This document shows, one piece after another, positions 21,921 to 30,085 of a stretch of 43,482 bases of DNA. Positions within the stretch are counted from its first letter, which is position 1, and every line of letters begins with the position of its first letter. Made by a program: the position numbers and the translations under genes. This DNA is from Candidatus Latescibacterota bacterium. Lineage in GTDB: Bacteria > Latescibacterota > UBA2968. The notes under the pieces are model-generated. The model was not told the origin of the DNA and made no database searches. It worked only from the letters and a program-made list of their open reading frames with translations. The stretch spans positions 1 through 43,482 of the forward strand of contig JAYODI010000051.1 in assembly GCA_038279365.1 (NCBI GenBank). Direction: 5' to 3'.

Positions 21921-22340
21921 CTATGCACGAACCTGCCCAGAAATACTCTTACGTAACCCCTGAAACTGCCCAGATAACAAACGCGCACCCACATTATAAA
22001 GCAAATGATTTTGAGCCAAATTGGACATTTCCATATCCACATCTACATTATTAATACCCGTTGAGTTGGGGCCTGCATCGGGTTGATAAATACGCGGTGC
22101 CTTATGTGCATCATTGCCCAAAAGCATATGGCGTGCGTCTGTTCGGGTACCTGCAATCTTGGGTTTGACAACTTGCGAACGCAAATAGCTTGCAAAATTG
22201 ACATCTTTGCGTTTGTAATTCACCGTAGAAGCATTTGAAATGTTGTTTGACAATGCACGATGGCGCAAAGAGGTCACATTGAGTGCCTTATTGAGCAGTG
22301 GAACACGTGTTTTATCAAAAATAAGATTGCGAACAAGCAT
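21921..22340 (-). CDS. fliB-like not applicable: Flagellar basal-body rod protein FlgB
   Basis: LNKAL....LRH.ALSNNISNAST.NYKRKDVNF, NNVDVDMEM..LAQN.L.Y; AGGAG RBS. Gene symbol is flgB. Confidence 0.93.
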   Translation of the reverse strand: MLVRNLIFDKTRVPLLNKALNVTSLRHRALSNNISNASTVNYKRKDVNFASYLRSQVVKPKIAGTRTDARHMLLGNDAHKAPRIYQPDAGPNSTGINNVDVDMEMSNLAQNHLLYNVGARLLSGQFQGLRKSISGQVRA

Positions 22341-22388
22341 GTAACAACTCCTTGATAAATCCCAAGATATTGATTCGTTTTATATTTA

Positions 22389-22405
22389 AGCAACATGTAT
22401 GCCCA
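22389..22405 (-). promoter_or_regulatory. sigma-54 (-24/-12) promoter of the flgB operon
   Basis: Minus strand TGGGCATACATGTTGCT has exact GG-N10-GC spacing (GG 22403-22402, GC 22391-22390), about 50 bp before flgB. Confidence 0.75.
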
Positions 22406-22651
22406 AAACTACGCACCTAAATTAAACAATTTTAAGTTATTGTTTTTTTTAATCTTGATAAATTTCAAGAAATTTAAAAATGATCTTTTAACAGGTAAAA
22501 CCTTCCCTTACTTCGGCAGGTTTTGCGACCCCAAATTTTGTTTTCGTCCTCGTTGATCCAATCATAATTGTTATATTAAATGTCCAATTACAATTCTCTA
22601 GATGACAAAATACAACCCATACTCTGAATGGATCAGGTGGTATTTATTCCT

Positions 22652-23329
22652 ATGTTAACCCCTGAAGAATGGCATATTTTAGCATTGTCTTTACGCGTGG
22701 GTCTACTGTGCGTAGCCATCAGCTTGCCCTTTGGCATTTTTTTAGGGTGGCTTTTGGCACGCCACAATTTTCGCGGCAAGGTATTATTTGACAGCATCTT
22801 ACACTTGCCATTGGTATTGCCACCGGTCGTAACAGGTTATGTGTTGCTCGTCTTTTTTGGGCGGCGTGGATTTTTGGGTAAGGTCTTAAACGATTGGTTT
22901 GATATTCAGCTCTCATTCACCTGGAAAGGGGCCGTATTGGCTTCGGCGGTGGTCGGTTTTCCGCTTATGTTGCGCGCCATTCGCTTGGCCATCGAAAACA
23001 TCGATCCCAAGCTCGAACGTGCCGCCCGTACTTTAGGTGCCTCTCCTCTACACGTTTTTACCACCATCACATTGCGCTTGGCCACACCCGGTATTTTAAT
23101 GGGTGCCTTATTAACATTTGCACGCAGTTTGGGCGAATTTGGGGCAACCATCACGTTTGCCGCCAATATTTCAGGTGAAACCCGCACCTTGCCATTGGCT
23201 ATTTATACCTTTCTCAATCAACCAGGTGGCGAAGATCCAGCATTGCGTTTGGTCATTATCTCTGCCCTTATTTCATTGGGCGCATTAATTGGCAGTGAAT
23301 GGGTAACTCGGCGTTTACAAAAGGTTTAA
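22652..23329 (+). CDS. modB: Molybdate ABC transporter permease
   Basis: LPLVLPPVVTGY, AARTLGAS, FARSLGEFGAT..AANI.GETRTLPLAIY. Confidence 0.95.
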   Translation: MLTPEEWHILALSLRVGLLCVAISLPFGIFLGWLLARHNFRGKVLFDSILHLPLVLPPVVTGYVLLVFFGRRGFLGKVLNDWFDIQLSFTWKGAVLASAVVGFPLMLRAIRLAIENIDPKLERAARTLGASPLHVFTTITLRLATPGILMGALLTFARSLGEFGATITFAANISGETRTLPLAIYTFLNQPGGEDPALRLVIISALISLGALIGSEWVTRRLQKV

Positions 23330-23330
23330 C

Positions 23331-24392
23331 GTGCTCAAAATTCAAATTCAAAAACAACTATCAACCTTTACACTCCAAGTCGATGTGACATGCCCATACC
23401 CTGTCACAGCCATCTTTGGCCCTTCGGGTTCGGGCAAAACAACCCTACTCAACCTCATCAGTGGTTTAGATCATCCCGACACGGGCGAGATCATCCTAAA
23501 CGACACCGTTCTGTATTCCACATCGCAACACATCAATCTACCACCCGAAAAACGCCGCATCGGTTACGTCTTTCAAGACGATTTGCTTTTTCCACATCTC
23601 ACTGTTCGCCAAAATCTGCTTTATGGGTATCACCTGCAAAAGAGCCAAAATCAACGCTTTGAACCCCAAGCCATCATAGACCTGCTGGAACTTCAGCTCT
23701 TGCTCACCCGATACCCTCAAAATCTATCTGGCGGTGAAAAACAGCGCGTTGCATTGGGGCGTGCCATTTTAGCATCTCCCCAACTATTAATTATGGATGA
23801 ACCATTAGCCGCACTTGACCAATCCCTCAAAGACCGCATCATCCCCTATTTGCGCAACATTCGCACCCATCTCAATATTCCCATTTTATATGTGAGCCAC
23901 TCCGTGGCCGAAATTTTGCAACTCACCGGTCAAGTACTTGTTTTACAAAAAGGCCAAGTCTTAGCACATGGCGATTTTTTTGATATCGCCCACCAAACCC
24001 ACGTCCTGCCCCTGCTTGAAGCCCACGGGTTTGAAAATGTGCTCCCCGTTGAAGTCATTGATGATACCCATGTGTTATACAACACCCACACCCTGCGCAT
24101 CCCACCGTGCAACCGCCCACCCAAAACACCTATTTTTATTGGCATTCGTGCCAATGATATCATTTTAAGCCGCGAACACCCTTCAGGGTTGAGCATTCGC
24201 AATGCCATGCCCGGAAAAATTCTCGACATTGTCGAAACCGAAGGCCGCCAACTCGTTTACATCGACTCAGGCAAACGCTTGGCCGTTGAAGTAACACAAG
24301 AAGCCATTGACGAATTAAACCTCAAACCCAATGACCCCATCATTTGCCTCATCAAAACCCATTCGATTCGCATTGGCCCAAATGTGGAATAA
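23331..24392 (+). CDS. modC: Molybdate ABC transporter ATPase
   Basis: GPSGSGKT, LSGGEKQR, MDEPLAALD, C-terminal Mop/TOBE region with the SIRN motif. Confidence 0.95.
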   Translation: MLKIQIQKQLSTFTLQVDVTCPYPVTAIFGPSGSGKTTLLNLISGLDHPDTGEIILNDTVLYSTSQHINLPPEKRRIGYVFQDDLLFPHLTVRQNLLYGYHLQKSQNQRFEPQAIIDLLELQLLLTRYPQNLSGGEKQRVALGRAILASPQLLIMDEPLAALDQSLKDRIIPYLRNIRTHLNIPILYVSHSVAEILQLTGQVLVLQKGQVLAHGDFFDIAHQTHVLPLLEAHGFENVLPVEVIDDTHVLYNTHTLRIPPCNRPPKTPIFIGIRANDIILSREHPSGLSIRNAMPGKILDIVETEGRQLVYIDSGKRLAVEVTQEAIDELNLKPNDPIICLIKTHSIRIGPNVE

Positions 24393-24413
24393 TTAAAATG
24401 CGGCCCACAACAC

Positions 24414-24444
24414 AAAAAGCCACCCCTGAATGGAGTGGCTTTTT
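24414..24444 (+). terminator. Intrinsic terminator after modC
   Basis: AAAAAGCCAC-N11-GTGGCTTTTT. Confidence 0.75.
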
Positions 24445-24652
24445 GCTTCAACAAAATTCAACAATTTAAAATAACTCATTTTTTTAAGATTTTTTGAAAC
24501 CTACATCCCAACAGCCCTGTCTTAAGTATGACACGTGTAAAAATTGTTATATTGAATCATTTTTGATGTGCTTTTTTGTTACCTTTTGGCCAAAAGTGCA
24601 TCCTAAAACATGTAACACTGAAAAGAAAATGTGATGAAATCAAAATTCATTC

Positions 24653-24681
24653 TTGACGATCTGCAATTCATGCACTATCTT
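24653..24681 (+). promoter_or_regulatory. sigma70-type promoter reading into the structured region
   Basis: TTGACG-17 bp-TATCTT. Confidence 0.6.
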
Positions 24682-24784
24682 TTCCCATCTGTAGTTTGCA
24701 AATTCGCCCATCACTCACAATCTTTAACTTTGGAATCCATCGTGTATATCAAAGCCTGCAAAAGCGAACCATTGGGCTAATTTT

Positions 24785-25028
24785 CCTGGAGTAACTCCAG
24801 GGTAGCACATTCACGCAAGAGGTCTCAACCTTCAACACCAATTGCTCTGTATATGTTGCCTTGACTCGTTCCTTCCAGGATGCCCACAAAAGCATTCAGG
24901 TGCCCGTCTGTGCCTGGGGAGGAGAACGAGGTATATCATGTCCGAATAGGACAATACCAACCATCCTTTACCAGGGTGGTATTTTTTATGCCGCAGCGGC
25001 GCCTCGCACTGCGGCTTTTGCGTTTTTT
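24785..25028 (+). ncRNA. Candidate structured ncRNA or long leader with terminator-like hairpins
   Basis: Stems CCTGGAG/CTCCAGG (24785-24801), CTCGTTC/GAACGAG (24865-24930, multibranch), TGTCC/GGACA (24939-24953), CCATCCT/AGGGTGG plus T-run (24961-24987), GCCGCAG/CTGCGGC plus T-run (24990-25028). No credible ORF. Confidence 0.45.
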
Positions 25029-25138
25029 AGAAAGGAGGTGTACCGCGTTCCAATACATTCATAAAACACGAAATATCAGATACTTGGCATTTGAATTGTA
25101 TCAAAAAGGAAGGAGGGATGTCTGATATGAAAGCTTAT

Positions 25139-25220
25139 AAAATAGAAAGGCCCTCACGCGAGTCTTTGGCGGGACGACGTGAGGACCCCAAATCACACCG
25201 ACAGGTACATCCGGTGTTTT
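25139..25220 (-). ncRNA. Candidate ~80-nt antisense sRNA (CopA/Inc-like CGCCAA loop)
   Basis: Minus strand: weak TTGCGG-17-TAAATT promoter, hairpin ACACCG/CGGUGU, then long hairpin GGUCCUCACG..GUC[CCGCCAAA]GAC..CGUGAGGGCC followed by UUUCUAUUUU. Confidence 0.5.
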
Positions 25221-25300
25221 GCATAATTTAGGACAAATAATTGATAACCGCAACAATATAATATGGTTGTGTCAAATCCGACACACCTCAGGAGACAAAA

Positions 25301-25501
25301 ATGAGCCCATTAAACCGCTCCTCACGAAACACAGAAATACGTCAGGCACTCAAAGCACATGCCATGTGCACATTCGCAGTCTTTGCACTGGTCATCGGTG
25401 CCTATACACTGGTCTTTTTACAAGACCTGCTAACAGGTCCATCGCCAACTCCTGTTGCCCATGTAGAAACCGAACATTATTTAGCCAATTATGGCCCTTA
25501 A
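25301..25501 (+). CDS. Small single-TM membrane protein (66 aa), paralog 1
   Basis: AGGAG RBS 7 nt before ATG; hydrophobic stretch MCTFAVFALVIGAYTLVFL; clear similarity to the next ORF. Confidence 0.75.
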   Translation: MSPLNRSSRNTEIRQALKAHAMCTFAVFALVIGAYTLVFLQDLLTGPSPTPVAHVETEHYLANYGP

Positions 25502-25557
25502 CAAAAATACAACTCGGGCATCCATTTAAACACGATGCCCACGAAAAGAGGAATTTC

Positions 25558-25764
25558 ATGCAAACATGGAAAGAAGTCTTTAGCCGAGAAGAAGAACGTC
25601 AAAACTTAAAAAACATCGGATTTTGCCTGCTCGTTGTCCTGACATTGGTAGTCGGGGCCTTCGCACTCACATCATTACAAATTTTCTTTGAACAATCGCG
25701 CAACACAGCTGGCGAATGGGCCGAATCGACCCCGTCAGAGTGGGCCGATGAAGTCAGAAAATAG
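25558..25764 (+). CDS. Small single-TM membrane protein (68 aa), paralog 2
   Basis: AGAGGA RBS before ATG 25558 (MQTWKEVF...); hydrophobic stretch IGFCLLVVLTLVVGAFAL. Confidence 0.75.
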   Translation: MQTWKEVFSREEERQNLKNIGFCLLVVLTLVVGAFALTSLQIFFEQSRNTAGEWAESTPSEWADEVRK

Positions 25765-25846
25765 ATGAAGGCAAAACAGATTGAGAAAGAAAACATCCAA
25801 ACCCTCTTTCTCCTCACTTTCCACTTTTAAAATCGAGAGTTTAACC

Positions 25847-26428
25847 ATGTCTTATACAGAAGAAAAAGACCTGGTCCGCCGCACATTACGCGGAGACATC
25901 GACGCTTTTTCCAACCTCTATCAACGGCATCACGCTCGCATTTTAGCCACCCTGATCGGACGCACCAGAAACAGAGACGATGCTGAAGATCTGATGCAAA
26001 TTACTTTTTTGCGAGCCTATCGTGGTTTATCTGGTTTCCGGGGTGAAGCTGCATTTTCAACCTGGCTGATGCAAATTGCACTCAATGTGTGTACGACCCA
26101 CCTGCGCGCCAAACAAGCACGTCGCTCGTGGCAAGACACCATCGAAAGCCCCCACTTGGGCTTTCGCGATCAGTGGGAACCCGCCAAAACAGAACGCCCA
26201 GATGACGCATTAAACCGCAAAGAATACCGCGAAATGATTCAACTGGGCATTGATGACCTCCCCCAACAATATCGCGAAGCCGTTTGGATGCGCTATGTGC
26301 ATGACCGGTCTTATGCCGAAATTGCCGACGAGTTGCAAGTGCCCATGGGCACCCTTAAAACGTGGTTGTATCGGGCTCGCAACCACCTGCAAGAACGCTT
26401 TGAAGGCTCCGAACTCGCCGCAATGTAA
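25847..26428 (+). CDS. ECF sigma factor (sigma-70 family, group 4)
   Basis: GDIDAF..LY..H, DAEDLMQ.TF.RAYR.L..FRG.AAFSTWL..IA.N (region 2); LP.QYRE...MRY....SYAEIA..L.VP.GT.KT.L.RAR (region 4). Confidence 0.95.
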   Translation: MSYTEEKDLVRRTLRGDIDAFSNLYQRHHARILATLIGRTRNRDDAEDLMQITFLRAYRGLSGFRGEAAFSTWLMQIALNVCTTHLRAKQARRSWQDTIESPHLGFRDQWEPAKTERPDDALNRKEYREMIQLGIDDLPQQYREAVWMRYVHDRSYAEIADELQVPMGTLKTWLYRARNHLQERFEGSELAAM

Positions 26429-26463
26429 TCCATAAGATCTAAGAACATATGAGAAGCAATCCA

Positions 26464-26495
26464 AAGCCGTCGGTTATAACAACCGACGGCTTCTT
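26464..26495 (+). terminator. Terminator after the ECF sigma gene
   Basis: Perfect 12-bp stem AAGCCGTCGGTT-ATAAC-AACCGACGGCTT followed by CTT. Confidence 0.75.
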
Positions 26496-26552
26496 CGTGT
26501 CCGATAATGAACACCACCATATCATTAAATAACAGGTTAAAATACACCTCAA

Positions 26553-26641
26553 TATGAACAACTTCATTAAACTACGAAAAATTTCGTTGACATTACGAAA
26601 TACTTCGTATATCTTTCAAGCAAAATACGAACACCTTCGTA
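26553..26641 (+). promoter_or_regulatory. blaI promoter with four palindromic operator sites
   Basis: TTGACA (26587)-17 bp-TATCTT (26610). TACGAA-N4-TTCGTA-type sites at 26573, 26594 and 26626; variant TATGAA-N4-TTCATT at 26553. Confidence 0.85.
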
Positions 26642-26663
26642 AATAAACACCCGAGGTCTAAAC

Positions 26664-27047
26664 ATGAGCACACAACCAAAACCCACTGATTCAGAACTCA
26701 ACATTCTCAAAATACTTTGGGAAAAAGGTCCACTCACCGTACGCGAGGTCCACGAAGCGTTAAATAACACCCGTCAAACGGGTTATACCACAACACTTAA
26801 ACTGATGCAAATTATGATCGAAAAAAAACTGGTCAAACGCGATAAATCTCAACGTGCCCATATTTATGAAGCACAAATTCAACAACAAGACACCCAACAG
26901 CACCTTGTAAAAAACCTCTTAGACCAGGTCTTTAGCGGATCAACCACAAGTTTGGTCATGCAGGCCCTATCAACAAAAAAGGCATCTGCCGAAGAAATCG
27001 AGCAAATTCGCAAAATGCTCGATGACTACGAAGGAGGCACACCTTGA
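26664..27047 (+). CDS. blaI: BlaI/MecI/CopY family transcriptional repressor
   Basis: PTDSEL.ILKILWEKGP.TVREVH...GYTTTLKLMQIM.EK.LV.RD...RAHIY, F.GS...LVMQAL. Confidence 0.93.
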   Translation: MSTQPKPTDSELNILKILWEKGPLTVREVHEALNNTRQTGYTTTLKLMQIMIEKKLVKRDKSQRAHIYEAQIQQQDTQQHLVKNLLDQVFSGSTTSLVMQALSTKKASAEEIEQIRKMLDDYEGGTP

Positions 27048-30000
27048 ATACCATCCATCTTATATTCTCACAAATAGATATTAATGCATTAGGTTGGACA
27101 TTGGTGCATTTTTTGTGGCAAGGAACTGCCATTGCTCTGCTCCTCAAATGTGCCAATTTGCTATCAAACAACGCCCATGTGCGTTATGTTTTTTCTTGTT
27201 TTGCCCTTTGCTTAATGATGTCCGCTCCGATCATCACCTTCTCATTGTTGTATACCCCCAAGCCAGTTGTGCAACACATGTATGCTATACTCTCACCCAT
27301 GCCACAACCAACCCCATCTTCCGAACAGATAAATCCACCATCAATTATACAGACTCCCAAATTTCGATCTCCCAGTAATCCTCAACTCCAAATAATAACA
27401 CCAAGTCCACAACCAACATATCGACCACAACCAACTCGGTCTCAACACTTAACAAATACACTTAACCAAAACCTCTTTTGGTTTGTAAACCTATGGTTCT
27501 TTGGTGTTGCGTTCTTATCTTTGCGGCTCTTATACATCTGGTTGCACACCCAACACCTCAAACACAAACACATTCAACCCGTTCACAAAGATTGGGAAGA
27601 TCGTTTAAAACATCTCCTTCACCGTCTTAAAATACACCAAAAGGTGCGCCTTCTCGAATCTACCATTGCCCAATCACCCATGGTTATTGGTTGGTTCAAA
27701 CCAGTGATACTCATCCCCACCAGCACATTCTTAGGCCTCACACAACAACAAATCGAAACCATCCTCATTCACGAATTGGCACATATTCGTCGATACGACT
27801 ACCTCATCAACCTACTTCAAACACTTGTTGAAACTGTGCTCTTTTATCACCCAGCCGTTTGGTGGGTGTCTCGCCAAATGCGCATCGAGCGCGAACACTG
27901 TTGCGACGATCTCACCCTTGCCACCTGCGGCAACGCCATCACCTACGCACGTGCACTAACACAATTAGAAACACACCGTCAACACACCGCTATTGCAGCA
28001 AGTGGTGGCAACCTACGCCAACGTATTCAACGCATACTCTCAGCCCAACCAAAACAAACGCATCAAATGCGCACACCCTTTGGCACTGGGTTAATCATCG
28101 TAATAATGGGCATCACATTCTTATTCGCATTTAACACAACATCGTCACCCAAAATAGAAGCCGCGACTCCATTCAAAAACCTTGAGCAAATCACATCCGC
28201 AGACAGCGCCATTGCCCACGTCAAAAACAGATACATGGCCTTCGACTTTGAAGCCGGTTTTATTGAAGGCGAACAATTGCAAAAACGTTTTCCAATATCA
28301 TCCGAACTCAAAGCATGGACCATTTGGAACATGGCCAGAACGGGATCCAATTTTGCGGCTGTTGCAGATGCCGAGAAAATGATCCAAGACAATGAAAATG
28401 ACCCTTGGGGATGGTATGCTCTCACAGGTGCATTGGGTTATTCCGAACATAAAGGGGAATTACGCACACGAGCCTATCAAGCCCATAAAAAATTCTTAGC
28501 AATAAACCCTACTTATCCAGACTCGATATGGTTTATTGCCACCGCCACACATCGTCAATTTGACTTCAAAAAAGACCAAGTCATTCCCTATGTTGACGCC
28601 TATGTGCACACCGCTCCCAATCCCGATTATTTGCTCACACTCAAAGGGTTCATTTTGGGATGGATGGCCAAAAGAAAAAACATACATCCCGTGGAATCGC
28701 GGCGTCGTTTTGCAGCTGCTTTAAATGCTTTCGAAAAAGCACGTCTCATCAACCCTCAAAATGTGTGGGCCTATCATCTGCCAGGTATCATATATGCTGA
28801 AAACAACAGGCACGCGGAAGCAAGCATTTTATTTGAAAAAGCACTCAAAATTTCTCCCAAAGCGCCATATATATGCGAAATGTATCTACGTAGCTTATAT
28901 CAAAGTGCCAGACCAGAAAAATACAAAAAGCTACTTGCAGAAGCCGTCATAGATACCATGCTCCAAGGCCGAGAAACATATCCACAAACATACCATACCG
29001 CCATGCGCAACTACGGTAGATTTGGACTGCCTCAAAAAATTGAACAACTTGAAGAATATATCCTACAAAATCAACCCAACCATTCACTTGCAGAAGGAAT
29101 TCTAGACAGACGCAACAACATCAGAGTCTACGGAATCTCTCCTCACCCCATCACCTCATTAGAAGTATCACTTCACAATTTAGAACAAATGTCATTATCT
29201 ATTCTATTAAACGACACCGTTACAGATTCTGTAAAACATCCGCAATGGAAACCATTCACTGAACAGCCATTTCACAAAAAAATCTATTCCTTTTTTATTA
29301 ACACCACACTTAAAGATTCCACCGAACACCCACAATTGATACGCTCTCCAGAACCACAACTTGATCAAGTAATCGTTTCTGTAAGCGGTCAAAAAAAACA
29401 TTTCTTCTTTAAAAATGAAATGATACCACGCACACTTATAGGCCCTAACACATTCGAAGACTTCACCACAAATCTTCAAAATGCAGCCTATCAACCTCAA
29501 ATGTCACATGACAGTTTATTCACCATTGTCAAACGAACCATGACACTTAAAGTGCCCCAAGCCTATAGTTATCAATGGCGAGCCATCATTGCCTTCCTCG
29601 ACAGAAACGCATTATTGAGAGAATCCGATATAACACCTTTTGACAACCAAGTTGCCTATGACAACCAAATCGAATCCTTTGCCCAACAAATTATCGCACA
29701 GGCCCACAACCAAACAGACACCACAGAGGCAAAACACATTCAAGCTTTGGGATATGATGCGTTGGGATGGCTCCATCTCAAAGAAAGACGATGGGAAGAA
29801 GCCCAAATTGCTTTAGAAAAAGCACGTGACCTTGATTCCAATGGCACCATTTTATATCATCTGGGCAAATACCATGAAAAAATGAATGAACCAGAACGCG
29901 CAGAGCAATATTATGCACAAGGCGTTCTGGCATCACTTGGAACAGACCAGACCGAATGGGCACTTAGAAGGTTATACAATCAAAAGAATCGCAACCTTGG

Positions 30001-30085
30001 AAGTGAACCTGCACACGGCTTTTATGCCCACTTAGAACAGCTCGCCTTTGAAAAATTGGATGGCCTATTCTCTGAAACACAATAG
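27044..30085 (+). CDS. BlaR1-like M56 membrane metallopeptidase with large C-terminal TPR-containing domain
   Basis: LGWTLVHFLWQG, HELAHIRRYD, HPAVWW....RIEREHCCDD; TM near aa 347-363, then TPR-like repeats; overlaps the blaI stop. Confidence 0.9.
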   Translation: MNTIHLIFSQIDINALGWTLVHFLWQGTAIALLLKCANLLSNNAHVRYVFSCFALCLMMSAPIITFSLLYTPKPVVQHMYAILSPMPQPTPSSEQINPPSIIQTPKFRSPSNPQLQIITPSPQPTYRPQPTRSQHLTNTLNQNLFWFVNLWFFGVAFLSLRLLYIWLHTQHLKHKHIQPVHKDWEDRLKHLLHRLKIHQKVRLLESTIAQSPMVIGWFKPVILIPTSTFLGLTQQQIETILIHELAHIRRYDYLINLLQTLVETVLFYHPAVWWVSRQMRIEREHCCDDLTLATCGNAITYARALTQLETHRQHTAIAASGGNLRQRIQRILSAQPKQTHQMRTPFGTGLIIVIMGITFLFAFNTTSSPKIEAATPFKNLEQITSADSAIAHVKNRYMAFDFEAGFIEGEQLQKRFPISSELKAWTIWNMARTGSNFAAVADAEKMIQDNENDPWGWYALTGALGYSEHKGELRTRAYQAHKKFLAINPTYPDSIWFIATATHRQFDFKKDQVIPYVDAYVHTAPNPDYLLTLKGFILGWMAKRKNIHPVESRRRFAAALNAFEKARLINPQNVWAYHLPGIIYAENNRHAEASILFEKALKISPKAPYICEMYLRSLYQSARPEKYKKLLAEAVIDTMLQGRETYPQTYHTAMRNYGRFGLPQKIEQLEEYILQNQPNHSLAEGILDRRNNIRVYGISPHPITSLEVSLHNLEQMSLSILLNDTVTDSVKHPQWKPFTEQPFHKKIYSFFINTTLKDSTEHPQLIRSPEPQLDQVIVSVSGQKKHFFFKNEMIPRTLIGPNTFEDFTTNLQNAAYQPQMSHDSLFTIVKRTMTLKVPQAYSYQWRAIIAFLDRNALLRESDITPFDNQVAYDNQIESFAQQIIAQAHNQTDTTEAKHIQALGYDALGWLHLKERRWEEAQIALEKARDLDSNGTILYHLGKYHEKMNEPERAEQYYAQGVLASLGTDQTEWALRRLYNQKNRNLGSEPAHGFYAHLEQLAFEKLDGLFSETQ

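Follow-up and report, generated by a model that had tools for sequence, protein, structure and literature searches.

The hairpin at positions 25150-25186 of a 43,482-nt stretch of Candidatus Latescibacterota DNA (the window) is real, and it is part of a putative small regulatory RNA family that is absent from Rfam and belongs to one order of uncultured bacteria. The block containing it is conserved and covarying, its wobble pairs are biased towards one strand, a U-run adjoins it and its chromosomal position is syntenic. The reading that we favour, and hold to be slightly on the probable side, is that the minus strand encodes a ~79-nt sRNA antisense to the leader of an ECF sigma factor operon, and that loop-loop pairing between the two RNAs lowers expression of the operon; the two transcripts and their ends, as well as their pairing and its effect, are predictions. 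An initial annotation had described the site as a plasmid-style CopA/CopT antisense switch, and the features that it listed (hairpin, ORF, Shine-Dalgarno sequence, leader stem and minus-strand signals) are all found where it had placed them. The parts of the locus are as follows.

25150-25186, plus strand: leader hairpin with loop UUUGGCGGGAC, the proposed target of the sRNA
25152-25158 and 25178-25184, plus strand: stem of the sense hairpin, CCTCACG and CGTGAGG, around GTCTTTGGCGGGAC
25225-25253, minus strand: predicted sigma-70-like sRNA promoter (-35 TTGCGG at 25253-25248, 17-nt spacer, -10 TAAATT at 25230-25225)
25140-25218, minus strand: predicted sRNA body of ~79 nt (5' hairpin, conserved linker, terminator hairpin), with both ends inferred
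25195-25217, minus strand: 5' hairpin ACACCG/CGGUGU (helix 1), whose 3' arm and the linker that follows form conserved motif 1, CCUGUCGGUGUGAUU
25148-25188, minus strand: terminator hairpin of 11+2 pairs (helix 2), with an open loop that carries motif 2, CGUCCCGCCAAAGACUCG, and CGCCAAA
Within the terminator-hairpin loop, minus strand: the stretch CGCCAAAG
25138-25149, minus strand: U-run UUUCUAUUUUAU, directly 3' of the terminator stem
25111-25116, plus strand: Shine-Dalgarno sequence GGAGGG, preceding the short ORF
25118 or 25127 (ATG) to 25229-25231 (stop), plus strand: short ORF within the listed ORF 25091-25231, spanning the hairpin
25073-25128, plus strand: leader stem AUAUCAGAUA/UGUCUGAUAU, formed around a small hairpin and the Shine-Dalgarno sequence and extending as far as both start codons
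25195-25232, plus strand: weak sense-strand hairpin with a U-run
25301-26428, plus strand: presumed controlled operon, encoding two small membrane proteins (25301-25501 and 25558-25764) and the ECF sigma factor (25847-26428)

The element lies opposite this operon in chromosomal synteny across two families, and an ECF orthologue adjoins it at 25 of 25 ECF-linked loci (41 loci were searched). The ECF protein matches Pfam Sigma70_r2 and r4_2, and the same protein-domain search gave no match for the two small membrane proteins. The ORFs in 22000-30085 comprise modB, modC, the two small membrane proteins, the ECF sigma factor, BlaI and a BlaR1-like protein; the initial annotation had remarked on the absence of a rep gene, and there is none among the neighbours examined. 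The 86 nt at 25140-25225 show 92-95% identity in another genus, g6, where the ECF protein beside the element shows just 75-79%, and mean column identity is 59% in the sense leader immediately upstream of the element. In both paralogue types, conservation sets in and breaks off at the predicted sRNA ends.

BLAST matches to the element are present in 27 of the 31 genomes of the family. A covariance-model search of the order, which comprised 53 genomes, detected it in 29, and none was detected among 102 genomes sampled from 12 further families of the phylum; in the window, covariance model R1 assigns 105.8 bits to the minus strand of 25132-25222. With two full copies and one partial hairpin in the 6.03-Mb genome analysed here, the possibility that the hairpin is a dispersed repeat, raised when it was first described, is ruled out. 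A global 18-mer scan of 185,579 species genomes matched at least 118 stretches; the full element was confirmed by BLAST in 26 among the matches listed, and the 19 of these with titles are all labelled Latescibacterota or Latescibacteria. The remaining 18-mer matches are due to chance and spread over many phyla, so that the scan says little about distribution. A literature search on Latescibacter small RNAs found no RNA regulators reported for Candidatus Latescibacterota.

The aligned copies bear out the secondary structure. Two-sided changes occur at 10 of 19 pairs, compared with 2.6±1.4 in shuffled alignments (none of 500 reached the observed value), a significance that these controls overstate because the related sequences are close. 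Over both helices, 92.2% of 565 cells are paired, as against 32-59% when the partner is slid by 1-3 columns. Helix 1 accounts for 6 pairs, with two-sided changes at 3 and 91.5% of cells paired, and motif 1 is retained even in copies that have no 5' arm; helix 2 accounts for 13 pairs, with two-sided changes at 7. Folded singly, the minus strand gives z = -2.41 (4 of 200 shuffles fold as well) and the plus strand alone a weak z = -0.54, and the large hairpin of the window has a folding energy of -23.1 kcal/mol on the minus strand compared with -18.5 kcal/mol on the plus strand. Read on the minus strand, the 23 strong copies contain 46 G·U and 5 A·C cells (38 and 5 in helix 2 alone), so that pairing is 98% on the minus strand and 89% on the plus strand.

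Every one of these strong copies has a terminator stem of 11+2 pairs, at -21.7 to -26.1 kcal/mol, and next to it a U-run of variable length and sequence, with 4 to 7 U in the first 8 bases. Upstream, promoter-like hexamers with a 17-nt spacer are found by eye at a constant distance in four different sequence versions: the layout TTGCAG or TTGCGA, 17 nt, TAAATT recurs in all 22 ECF-linked copies of family f1 when their alignment is inspected, and the hexamers found by eye at the same distance in family f2 are TTGACC-17-TGATAT, TTGGCC-17-TATCGT and TTGCCA-17-TAAATT. A simple promoter and terminator scan of the window listed neither the TTGCGG/TAAATT promoter nor the minus-strand terminator; TTGCGG-17-TAAATT may nevertheless be the sRNA promoter. 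Taken together, the strand bias of the wobbles, the U-run of all the strong copies and a promoter-like sequence at a fixed distance point to an sRNA of ~79 nt on the minus strand, running from about 25218 to 25140. The ~80-nt minus-strand RNA with promoter, two hairpins and terminator that had been proposed earlier is thus still, as a prediction from comparison, the best reading of the conserved block.

The UUGGCG target loop and CGCCAA antisense loop that the initial annotation had pointed out are present in the window, and CGCCAA (UUGGCG in the sense direction) is retained in 25 of 30 aligned copies; the others read GGCCAA (three), CGCCGG (one) and UGCAAA (one). With UUGGCG in the loop of the target hairpin, recognition is expected to start from loop to loop. 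A search for literature on UUGGCG in antisense RNA loops found no relevant open paper. Two further loop words downstream, CGCCAA at 25443 and CCCGCCAAA at 26180, had been suspected of being chance matches, and so they are: the first was rejected as a target at a genome-wide frequency of 1.09 occurrences per kb, and the second because CCCGCCAA occurs in 0 of 23 orthologous ECF genes.

On the antisense reading, the sRNA would be transcribed from the sigma-70-like promoter at 25253-25225, from ~25218 to ~25140, and end in its terminator stem-loop. Its gene would lie inside, and opposite, the 5' leader of the mRNA for the two membrane proteins and the ECF sigma factor, a leader with a short translated ORF and a mirror-image hairpin. 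The sRNA loop and the leader loop would make first contact in a loop-loop 'kiss', from which the duplex would extend over the fully complementary ~79 nt. Operon expression might then fall in one of three ways: translation of the short ORF could be blocked, the duplex could be cleaved, or stopping could be favoured at the sense hairpin and U-run at 25195-25232. The antisense, kissing-loop logic of the initial annotation is therefore plausible and partly supported by comparison; membership in the CopA or Inc RNA families, which it also implied, is a separate matter treated below.

What was said of the leader ORF stands in part. A short ORF with its own Shine-Dalgarno sequence lies opposite the predicted sRNA and 5' of the ECF operon in two families, and the Shine-Dalgarno sequence and start codon are kept across f1 at 25-35 nt 5' of the hairpin; its frame and length, however, are not conserved. 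In three g6 genomes an early TGA leaves 21 aa, and in genome G009 and in f2 both frame and start differ. The short ORF ends (25231) 70 nt before the next start codon (25301), and so is without coupling by overlap. A single-sequence fold pairs ATATCAGATA (25073-25082) with TGTCTGATAT (25119-25128), and in most of 12 folded orthologues the start region likewise pairs with a segment 45-55 nt upstream, in differing registers; RNAalifold gave no consensus for the leader stem.

Other copies of the element stand alone, one of them in this genome at C141:10338-10428. In related genomes, sense-oriented copies lie 5' of other genes, whose products are a kinase of APH(6) type, a protein of the glyoxalase family, a nucleotidyltransferase-like protein with DUF4037, and a DUF4258 protein. 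Neither the stand-alone paralogues nor these target-like copies had been foreseen in the initial annotation. The stand-alone copies are nearly perfect matches to the ECF leader, which could be their target in trans, and the sense-oriented copies may be further targets. The sRNA of genome G002 and the copy 5' of the APH(6)-like kinase gene agree at 33 of 36 motif positions and at 46 of 75 compared positions overall. No element was found upstream of the APH(6)-like orthologue of the genome analysed here (C129:39881), so that the kinase-linked copy is specific to two sister genomes.

These copies also bear on an alternative that we regard as unlikely, if one to be taken seriously, namely that the element is an independent trans-acting sRNA gene that merely diverges from the ECF operon. 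The operon mRNA would then start downstream of 25222, without antisense overlap, other mRNAs would be targeted through the two motifs, and the placement would reflect shared regulation, as it does for sRNA genes that adjoin the genes of their regulators. That stand-alone copies have promoter-like and terminator signals of their own, that weak sense-oriented copies precede unrelated genes, and that the short ORF varies in frame and length would all fit such a gene, as would the lack of any convincing candidate for a sense-strand promoter upstream of the element. Against it, conservation of the Shine-Dalgarno sequence and start codon 5' of the sense hairpin is left unexplained, and in g6 the ~68 nt between the element and the next start codon consist mostly of the sRNA promoter, leaving scant room for a separate one. 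The ECF-linked copy of genus g11 is also difficult to reconcile with it: both hairpins are kept there solely in the sense direction, through G·U pairs (-12.3 kcal/mol sense compared with -7.4 kcal/mol antisense for the hairpin), and the antisense version is broken. Despite a CC-to-UU change, this g11 copy would remain able to pair with the corresponding G's of the stand-alone sRNA encoded in its own genome, and over motif 1 leader and stand-alone sRNA would form 15 Watson-Crick and 2 G·U pairs with 0 mismatches.

Metatranscriptome contigs cut both ways. The RNA data are Logan contigs from four runs, which are unstranded and can show neither ends nor level. Contigs of run X1 at 99% identity or more cover 24539-25249, and in run X2 the intervals 24963-25133 and 25104-25269 are covered by contigs of at least 95% identity; DNA carry-over is possible in both sets. 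That they end at 25249-25269, short of the membrane-protein genes, would suit an independent sRNA gene, but they also bridge 25040-25132, the interval that separates the element from the upstream terminators, where RNA is expected neither from upstream transcription nor from the sRNA. No contig of the four runs covers 25270-25878, which makes the data uninformative on operon expression.

A second alternative, which we think improbable, assigns the function to the sense strand alone: the element would be a 5' leader that acts in cis on the ECF operon and elsewhere on the kinase, glyoxalase, nucleotidyltransferase and other genes. It would do so by binding a protein or a small molecule or as an attenuator that depends on the ribosome, and the apparent antisense gene would be a by-product. 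The seven weak copies lend it substance, being more stable in the sense direction by 2.5-7.5 kcal/mol and situated 5' of the ECF operon or of other genes, with just 2 to 5 U within the first 8 bases after the stem and no U-run proper. Short ORFs with Shine-Dalgarno sequences lie beside many copies, and the inner stem GUCU/GGAC favours the plus strand, with C-G in 11 and U·G in 7 copies at one pair and U·G in 12 and C-G in 6 at the next. In the stand-alone copies of f1 and f2 the plus-strand fold is at least as stable as the minus-strand fold, a point against the antisense reading. Set against the sense-only alternative are the excess of G·U over A·C cells (46:5) among the 23 strong copies, which favours the minus strand, and the U-run, which abuts the stem on that strand only. 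The stand-alone copy of this genome has no sense-strand gene downstream, the next gene being convergent, and no Rfam riboswitch or leader family matches.

An extension of the antisense reading, which we put forward tentatively and consider doubtful, is that the element is a portable kissing-loop module that serves in either orientation. As antisense it would be an sRNA, and as sense a hairpin with the two motifs, a landing pad copied into the ECF leader and into other 5' regions. The paralogue at the ECF locus would have a housekeeping-type promoter and another, elsewhere, one of ECF type; the sigma factor, its antisense RNA and the ECF-driven paralogue would make up a feedback loop, into which genes would be wired by acquiring the module. 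The stand-alone copies of f1 have TGAAAC-N17-CGTCAC upstream. In Bacillus subtilis, ECF promoters have a -35 element with AAC (TGAAAC) and a -10 element CGTC or CGTA, according to PMC5758882; the upstream sequence of the stand-alone copies matches this pattern and could, going by its conservation, be an ECF-type promoter. The pattern TGAAAC-N17-CGTCA occurs 4 times in this genome, compared with 0-8 times for seven versions with a scrambled -10 element, which is no enrichment; in five g6 genomes it occurs 6-10 times, compared with 1-3 times for the reversed pattern. Six other sites inspected in genomes G010 and G027 comprise five that overlap long ORFs and one that is intergenic. No ECF-type promoter regulon could be defined from the occurrences of the pattern.

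That the conserved block is instead a small protein, MSDMKAYKIERPSRESLAGRREDPKSHRQVHPVFCII, and owes its conservation to coding is very improbable. Preceded by a Shine-Dalgarno sequence, its reading frame is uninterrupted in the window and in the majority of g6 genomes, and several variable sites fall at third codon positions (TCA/TCG, CGA/CGG/CGC/CGT, CGT/CGC, GCG/GCC). But the early stop in three g6 genomes interrupts it, G009 and f2 use another frame or stop before the block, and the stand-alone copies lack a start codon and have a stop a short way upstream. The ~90% nucleotide identity between old paralogues exceeds coding constraint, and the changes in the stems are compensatory. On ORF disruption, paralogue identity and compensatory stem changes we rejected the coding hypothesis.

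The initial annotation had likened the site to CopA/CopT and Inc/RepZ control and proposed a search with the corresponding Rfam models. With an E limit of 10, cmscan placed none of all 4227 families on the element, either in 25040-25300 (261 nt) or in 23500-27000 (3.5 kb), the sole match in the shorter interval being to SAM-V (14.4 bits, E = 8), which we took as noise. Nor did any Rfam family fall on the element at three related loci at E up to 1. PK-repZ had no match in the window; on an unrelated hairpin at locus L037 it reached 22.4 bits (E = 0.19), below its gathering score of 44. CopA is presumably Rfam RF00042. With no model matching, no rep gene among the neighbours examined and no overlap coupling, membership in CopA/CopT or Inc/RepZ is not supported. 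That the element is a true homologue or remnant of such a replication-control module is hardly credible, since for all the likeness of layout (a two-hairpin antisense RNA, a short ORF in the leader and a target loop with UUGGCG) it is contradicted by the Rfam results, by the neighbours (modB/modC, ECF and BlaI/BlaR1), by the syntenic chromosomal position across two families and by the distribution of the element, found only in this order.

If the antisense reading is right, a chromosomal stress sigma factor would be under the control of an antisense RNA and of a short ORF in the leader, an arrangement familiar above all from the copy-number control of plasmids, and this RNA would have targets in trans as well, reached by way of a structured recognition loop. 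It would then be a compact and testable case of an RNA module that was duplicated and re-used as regulator and as target. Should the antisense transcript be absent, a conserved leader structure would remain, of more modest interest. The covariance model can be used for annotating these genomes.

In CopA/CopT and in Inc RNA/RepZ the target loop is 5'-UUGGCG-3' and the antisense loop CGCCAA. Both systems control a plasmid rep gene that adjoins an origin, and translation of their leader peptide ORF is coupled to that of the gene downstream, in RepZ with a pseudoknot as well. Like CopA-CopT-tap of R1/IncFII and Inc RNA-repY-repZ of ColIb-P9, the present locus would place a stem-loop antisense RNA opposite a leader with a short ORF. 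In the plasmid modules, according to PMC5304414, what counts is that the leader ORF is translated and not which peptide it yields, a rule that would fit the unconserved peptide here. Unlike in those modules, the genes controlled would be chromosomal ones, for membrane proteins and an ECF sigma factor, rather than rep, and there are trans-encoded paralogues and target-like copies.

A second comparison is with MicA and RybB, the sigma-E-dependent envelope-stress sRNAs of enterobacteria, which are likewise small, terminator-ended and tied to an ECF sigma factor (for MicA, PMC1851643). MicA and RybB, however, are not known to lie opposite the leader of the sigma factor operon or to have that leader as a perfect target. 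At oxyS/oxyR and gcvB/gcvA an sRNA gene diverges from a regulator gene. The present element resembles cis-antisense sRNAs with trans paralogues and the oxyS/oxyR and gcvB/gcvA pairs in being head-to-head with a regulator gene, in having several paralogues per genome and in its unpaired conserved seeds; it differs from this type in that the terminator loop presents the seed and in that the target carries a structured mirror image of it.

The initial annotation had proposed an antisense switch of the CopA/CopT type upstream of the ECF operon, and on re-reading the sequence we located all of the features it had named, each at its coordinates:

25152-25158 / 25178-25184, plus strand: large hairpin, CCTCACG/CGTGAGG around GTCTTTGGCGGGAC, read from the sequence
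25118 or 25127 (ATG) to 25229-25231 (stop), plus strand: short ORF within the listed ORF 25091..25231
25111-25116, plus strand: GGAGGG Shine-Dalgarno, from the sequence
25073-25082 / 25119-25128, plus strand: leader stem ATATCAGATA/TGTCTGATAT, from a single-sequence fold
25253-25225, minus strand: promoter-like TTGCGG, 17 nt, TAAATT, from the sequence
After this promoter, minus strand: small hairpin, large hairpin with CGCCAAA in its loop, then UUUCUAUUUUAU, from the sequence

The energy of folding is by itself insufficient to establish the element: z = -0.54 for the plus strand and -2.41 for the minus strand, with 4 of 200 minus-strand shuffles equally stable. A simple consensus scan listed neither the minus-strand promoter nor the terminator of the element.

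The block from 25140 to 25225 (86 nt) is 92-95% identical in all 21 genomes of a second genus, g6, whereas the adjoining ECF protein is just 75-79% identical there; mean column identity in the sense leader immediately upstream of the element is 59%. In the alignment of our minus-strand covariance model (R1; 30 sequences, close kin), standard pairs fill 92.2% of 565 cells, and pairing fell to only 32-59% of cells when the 3' partner was slid by 1-3 columns as a control. Covariation at homologous loci, which the initial annotation had suggested checking, was found as two-sided changes at 10 of 19 pairs compared with 2.6±1.4 in shuffles (the observed value was reached by 0 of 500), in sequences whose close kinship, by the tool's own warning, inflates such shuffle controls.

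Since a G·U pair on one strand is an A·C mismatch on the other, wobble pairs point to the transcribed strand. On the minus strand, the 23 strong copies have 46 G·U cells, each an A·C mismatch if read on the opposite strand, and only 5 A·C cells, for which the reverse holds; one stem pair cycles through U·G, U-A, and C-G in 12, 4, and 9 sequences, respectively. In 23 of 23 strong copies, a U-run of varying length and sequence (4-7 U within 8 nt) follows directly on the large minus-strand hairpin. The conserved block starts a few bases past promoter-like hexamers with a 17-nt spacer, of which four versions were read by eye at equal distance (TTGCRG/TTGCGA-17-TAAATT, TTGACC-17-TGATAT, TTGGCC-17-TATCGT, and TTGCCA-17-TAAATT). 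Two signals run counter to this: the inner four pairs, GUCU/GGAC, pair better on the plus strand, and several stand-alone copies have a plus-strand fold as stable as that of the minus strand, or more so. Taken together, covariation, wobble bias, U-run, and promoter-like hexamers are what a small RNA gene of ~79 nt, read from 25218 to 25140, would show, in agreement with the minus-strand RNA of ~80 nt that the initial annotation had proposed.

The initial annotation had also raised the possibility of a dispersed repeat. This was not borne out in the window's own genome (199 contigs, 6.03 Mb in total), which has one further full copy, C141:10350-10422 (95% identical over 73 nt, with a stem pair exchanged from A-U to G-C relative to the window copy). 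BLAST also identified a single partial hairpin of 23 nt at C141:10208-10230 that shares the loop; its remaining matches, of 17-18 nt, are at chance level. BLAST matched the element in 27 of the 31 genomes of the window's family, f1, and R1 detected it in 29 of 53 genomes of the order, the window's own included (without it, 25 of 30 in f1 and 3 of 22 in a second family, f2), with matches spread over 6 of 11 genera. R1 matched 0 of 102 genomes from 12 other families in an even sample of the phylum. At least 26 public records contain the full element, among at least 118 pattern matches listed, and 19 of the 19 titles listed for these records read 'Candidatus Latescibacterota' or 'uncultured Latescibacteria'. 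An Rfam search of 23500-27000 and three related loci yielded no family matching the element, which is a previously undescribed predicted sRNA family, restricted to one order and with an odd sense/antisense and cis/trans arrangement.

ECF-linked copies sit between modC and a small-membrane-protein gene plus the ECF sigma factor gene, and the predicted sRNA is directed away from the operon. Among 41 loci searched, all 25 of this type (the window, G009, 20 genomes of g6, and three of f2) have an ECF orthologue next to the element, and the 21st g6 genome has the identical flank arrangement in the alignment. The f2 copy L187, at 70.3 bits counted among the strong copies, has a sense-favoured fold like that of the weak copies described below. 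Only ~68 nt, mostly sRNA promoter, separate the element from the first gene in g6, which argues that operon transcription runs from upstream across the element. A Shine-Dalgarno and start codon are kept 25-35 nt ahead of the hairpin throughout f1. The short ORF ends after 21 codons in three g6 genomes, is in a different frame in G009 and L187, and terminates ahead of the element in the f2 loci L189 and L190; since neither frame nor length is conserved, it would be the act of translation, if it occurs, rather than the peptide that matters.

Neither of the two small single-pass membrane proteins encoded in the operon (25301-25501 and 25558-25764, plus strand) matches a Pfam entry. In f1 and f2 alike, the second (MQTWKEVF...) is conserved next to the ECF gene, and it is a candidate for a minimal anti-sigma factor; for the first, g6 gives no match and the f2 locus L187 only a weak one. 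Directly after the ECF gene (26664-30085, plus strand) are a BlaI-type repressor (Pfam Penicillinase_R) and a 1013-aa protein judged BlaR1-like by eye from its translation, a pair that may be a separate unit because other genes follow the ECF gene in g6. In one genome only (G030, locus L178), short G/A-rich repeats (GGGAGAC..., then GGCGAAAG...) are inserted between the element and the membrane-protein gene.

The predicted sRNA would display CGUCCCGCCAAAGACUCG in its open terminator loop and CCUGUCGGUGUGAUU beside its 5' hairpin, and the leader would offer exact complements of both, the first in a UUGG-containing hairpin loop. Pairing could start loop to loop and then spread, and would probably lower operon expression by blocking short-ORF translation, by cleavage of the duplex, or by a premature stop at a weak sense-strand hairpin and U-run (25195-25232).

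Other copies, for example the following, stand alone in long intergenic regions:

Window's genus: C141 in the window's own genome, L174, L182
g6: L037, L173, L175, L185
f2: L177, L179, L180, L186

The sole conserved upstream signal of the f1 stand-alone copies is TGAAAC-N17-CGTCAC, two fixed blocks around a variable spacer (TGTCAC replaces CGTCAC in the window's own genome), present at the stand-alone locus of all five g6 genomes scanned. It fits the Bacillus subtilis ECF promoter pattern as given in PMC5758882; pattern scans of the window's own and g6 genomes defined no wider regulon. The loop reads AAGAAC in stand-alone and AAAGAC in ECF-linked copies (one wobble and one mismatch), a difference maintained in both f1 genera, so the stand-alone paralogues might act on the leader at a changed affinity, or on targets of their own.

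Several further features accompany these copies. The partial hairpin on C141 (L002:1357-1383) is a 27-nt mini-hairpin, UGCGC / CGUCCCGCCAAGAACUCG / GCGCA, with the sRNA loop, also seen at L191 (G004:C158); it lies 35-105 nt past the sRNA terminator in two genera, and in G003 (L029/L182) a deletion seems to have joined it to the full copy. About 140 nt beyond the element on the sense strand of L179, L180, and L186, a conserved Shine-Dalgarno precedes a very short ORF (8, 16, and 21 codons) beginning M(R/G)IRI(K/R)L. L177 (G033) is ~420 nt from a TnpB/IS605 OrfB-like gene.

Seven weak copies (L184 and L188-L193; 35-59 bits in R1) retain the two motifs (the linker by the 5' hairpin and the terminator loop) and the hairpin only, with the stem changed by compensation, e.g. 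UCAUUCG/CGAAUGA. With 2-5 U in 8, they lack a proper U-run; their sense fold is 2.5-7.5 kcal/mol more stable than the antisense fold, and their minus strand has 21 A·C versus 12 G·U cells. Two of the seven (L189, L190) represent the ECF-linked type in genus g11; the other five lie 5' of various genes:

L192 (G002), L193 (G003): APH(6)-like kinase gene
L184 (G004): glyoxalase/bleomycin-resistance-family gene
L188 (G033): DUF4258 gene
L191 (G004): DUF4037 gene

The kinase orthologue in the window's own genome (C129:39881) has no element upstream. Sense-oriented motif copies precede a DUF4037 gene in two genera, in a set of loci that includes L175 (G026). The G002 sRNA agrees with the copy ahead of the kinase gene at 33 of 36 motif positions, against just 46 of 75 compared positions overall. 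Both g11 hairpins are preserved in the sense direction only, via G·U pairs, the antisense hairpin having three mismatches at its base. The CC-to-UU change in the first motif of the g11 copies is predicted to keep pairing with G's of the stand-alone sRNA of that genome (15 Watson-Crick pairs, 2 G·U pairs, and 0 mismatches); the loops give 18 matches and 1 mismatch. These g11 and G002 patterns, like the kept Shine-Dalgarno and the short g6 gap, count as evidence of a function for the sense leader itself.

Logan contigs from four metatranscriptome runs (X1-X4; three studies), which give no strand, ends, or level, were aligned to 24400-26500. A 714-nt X1 contig spans 24539-25249 at ≥99% identity, X2 contigs cover 24606-24988, 24963-25133, and 25104-25269, X3 and X4 cover 24719-24913 and 24741-25037, and X1 and X3 have additional pieces within the ECF gene. 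RNA libraries thus contain this region, also the stretch (25040-25132) that separates the upstream terminators from the element, with DNA carry-over possible.

Just upstream is a conserved RNA-like region of ~350 nt (24653-25040, plus strand), with no Rfam family match and covered by contigs in all four runs. Its promoter TTGACG-17-TATCTT (24653-24681), laid out identically at all 11 loci checked, precedes conserved blocks including GGGAATCCATCGTGTATAT and UCCUGG...CCAGGA, and the region closes with two tandem terminators (24960-24990 and 24991-25035); an analogous region, under a promoter of its own, occurs in f2. Right after modC, a hairpin flanked by A-runs and T-runs (24408-24445) resembles a two-way terminator; its sub-threshold Rfam match to rli61, mainly over the terminator hairpin, scores 33.2 bits where the gathering score is 50.

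The element's link to an ECF sigma factor is reminiscent of the sigma-E-dependent sRNAs; a difference is that the predicted sRNA is encoded opposite the leader of the sigma operon itself. Its regulatory logic resembles that of R1 CopA/CopT-tap and ColIb-P9 Inc/repY-repZ, and the UUGGCG/CGCCAA loop hexamer is the only tested defining feature of these systems that it shares. No CopA/CopT or Inc/RepZ family matched in the Rfam search, the examined neighbours include no rep gene, as had been noted initially, PK-repZ has no match in the window, and, unlike in those systems, the short ORF lacks overlap coupling to the next gene. The initial interpretation is partly supported, in the antisense-sRNA signature and the loop, and the element is an analogue of the plasmid CopA/CopT and Inc/RepZ systems rather than a member of the CopA or Inc families.
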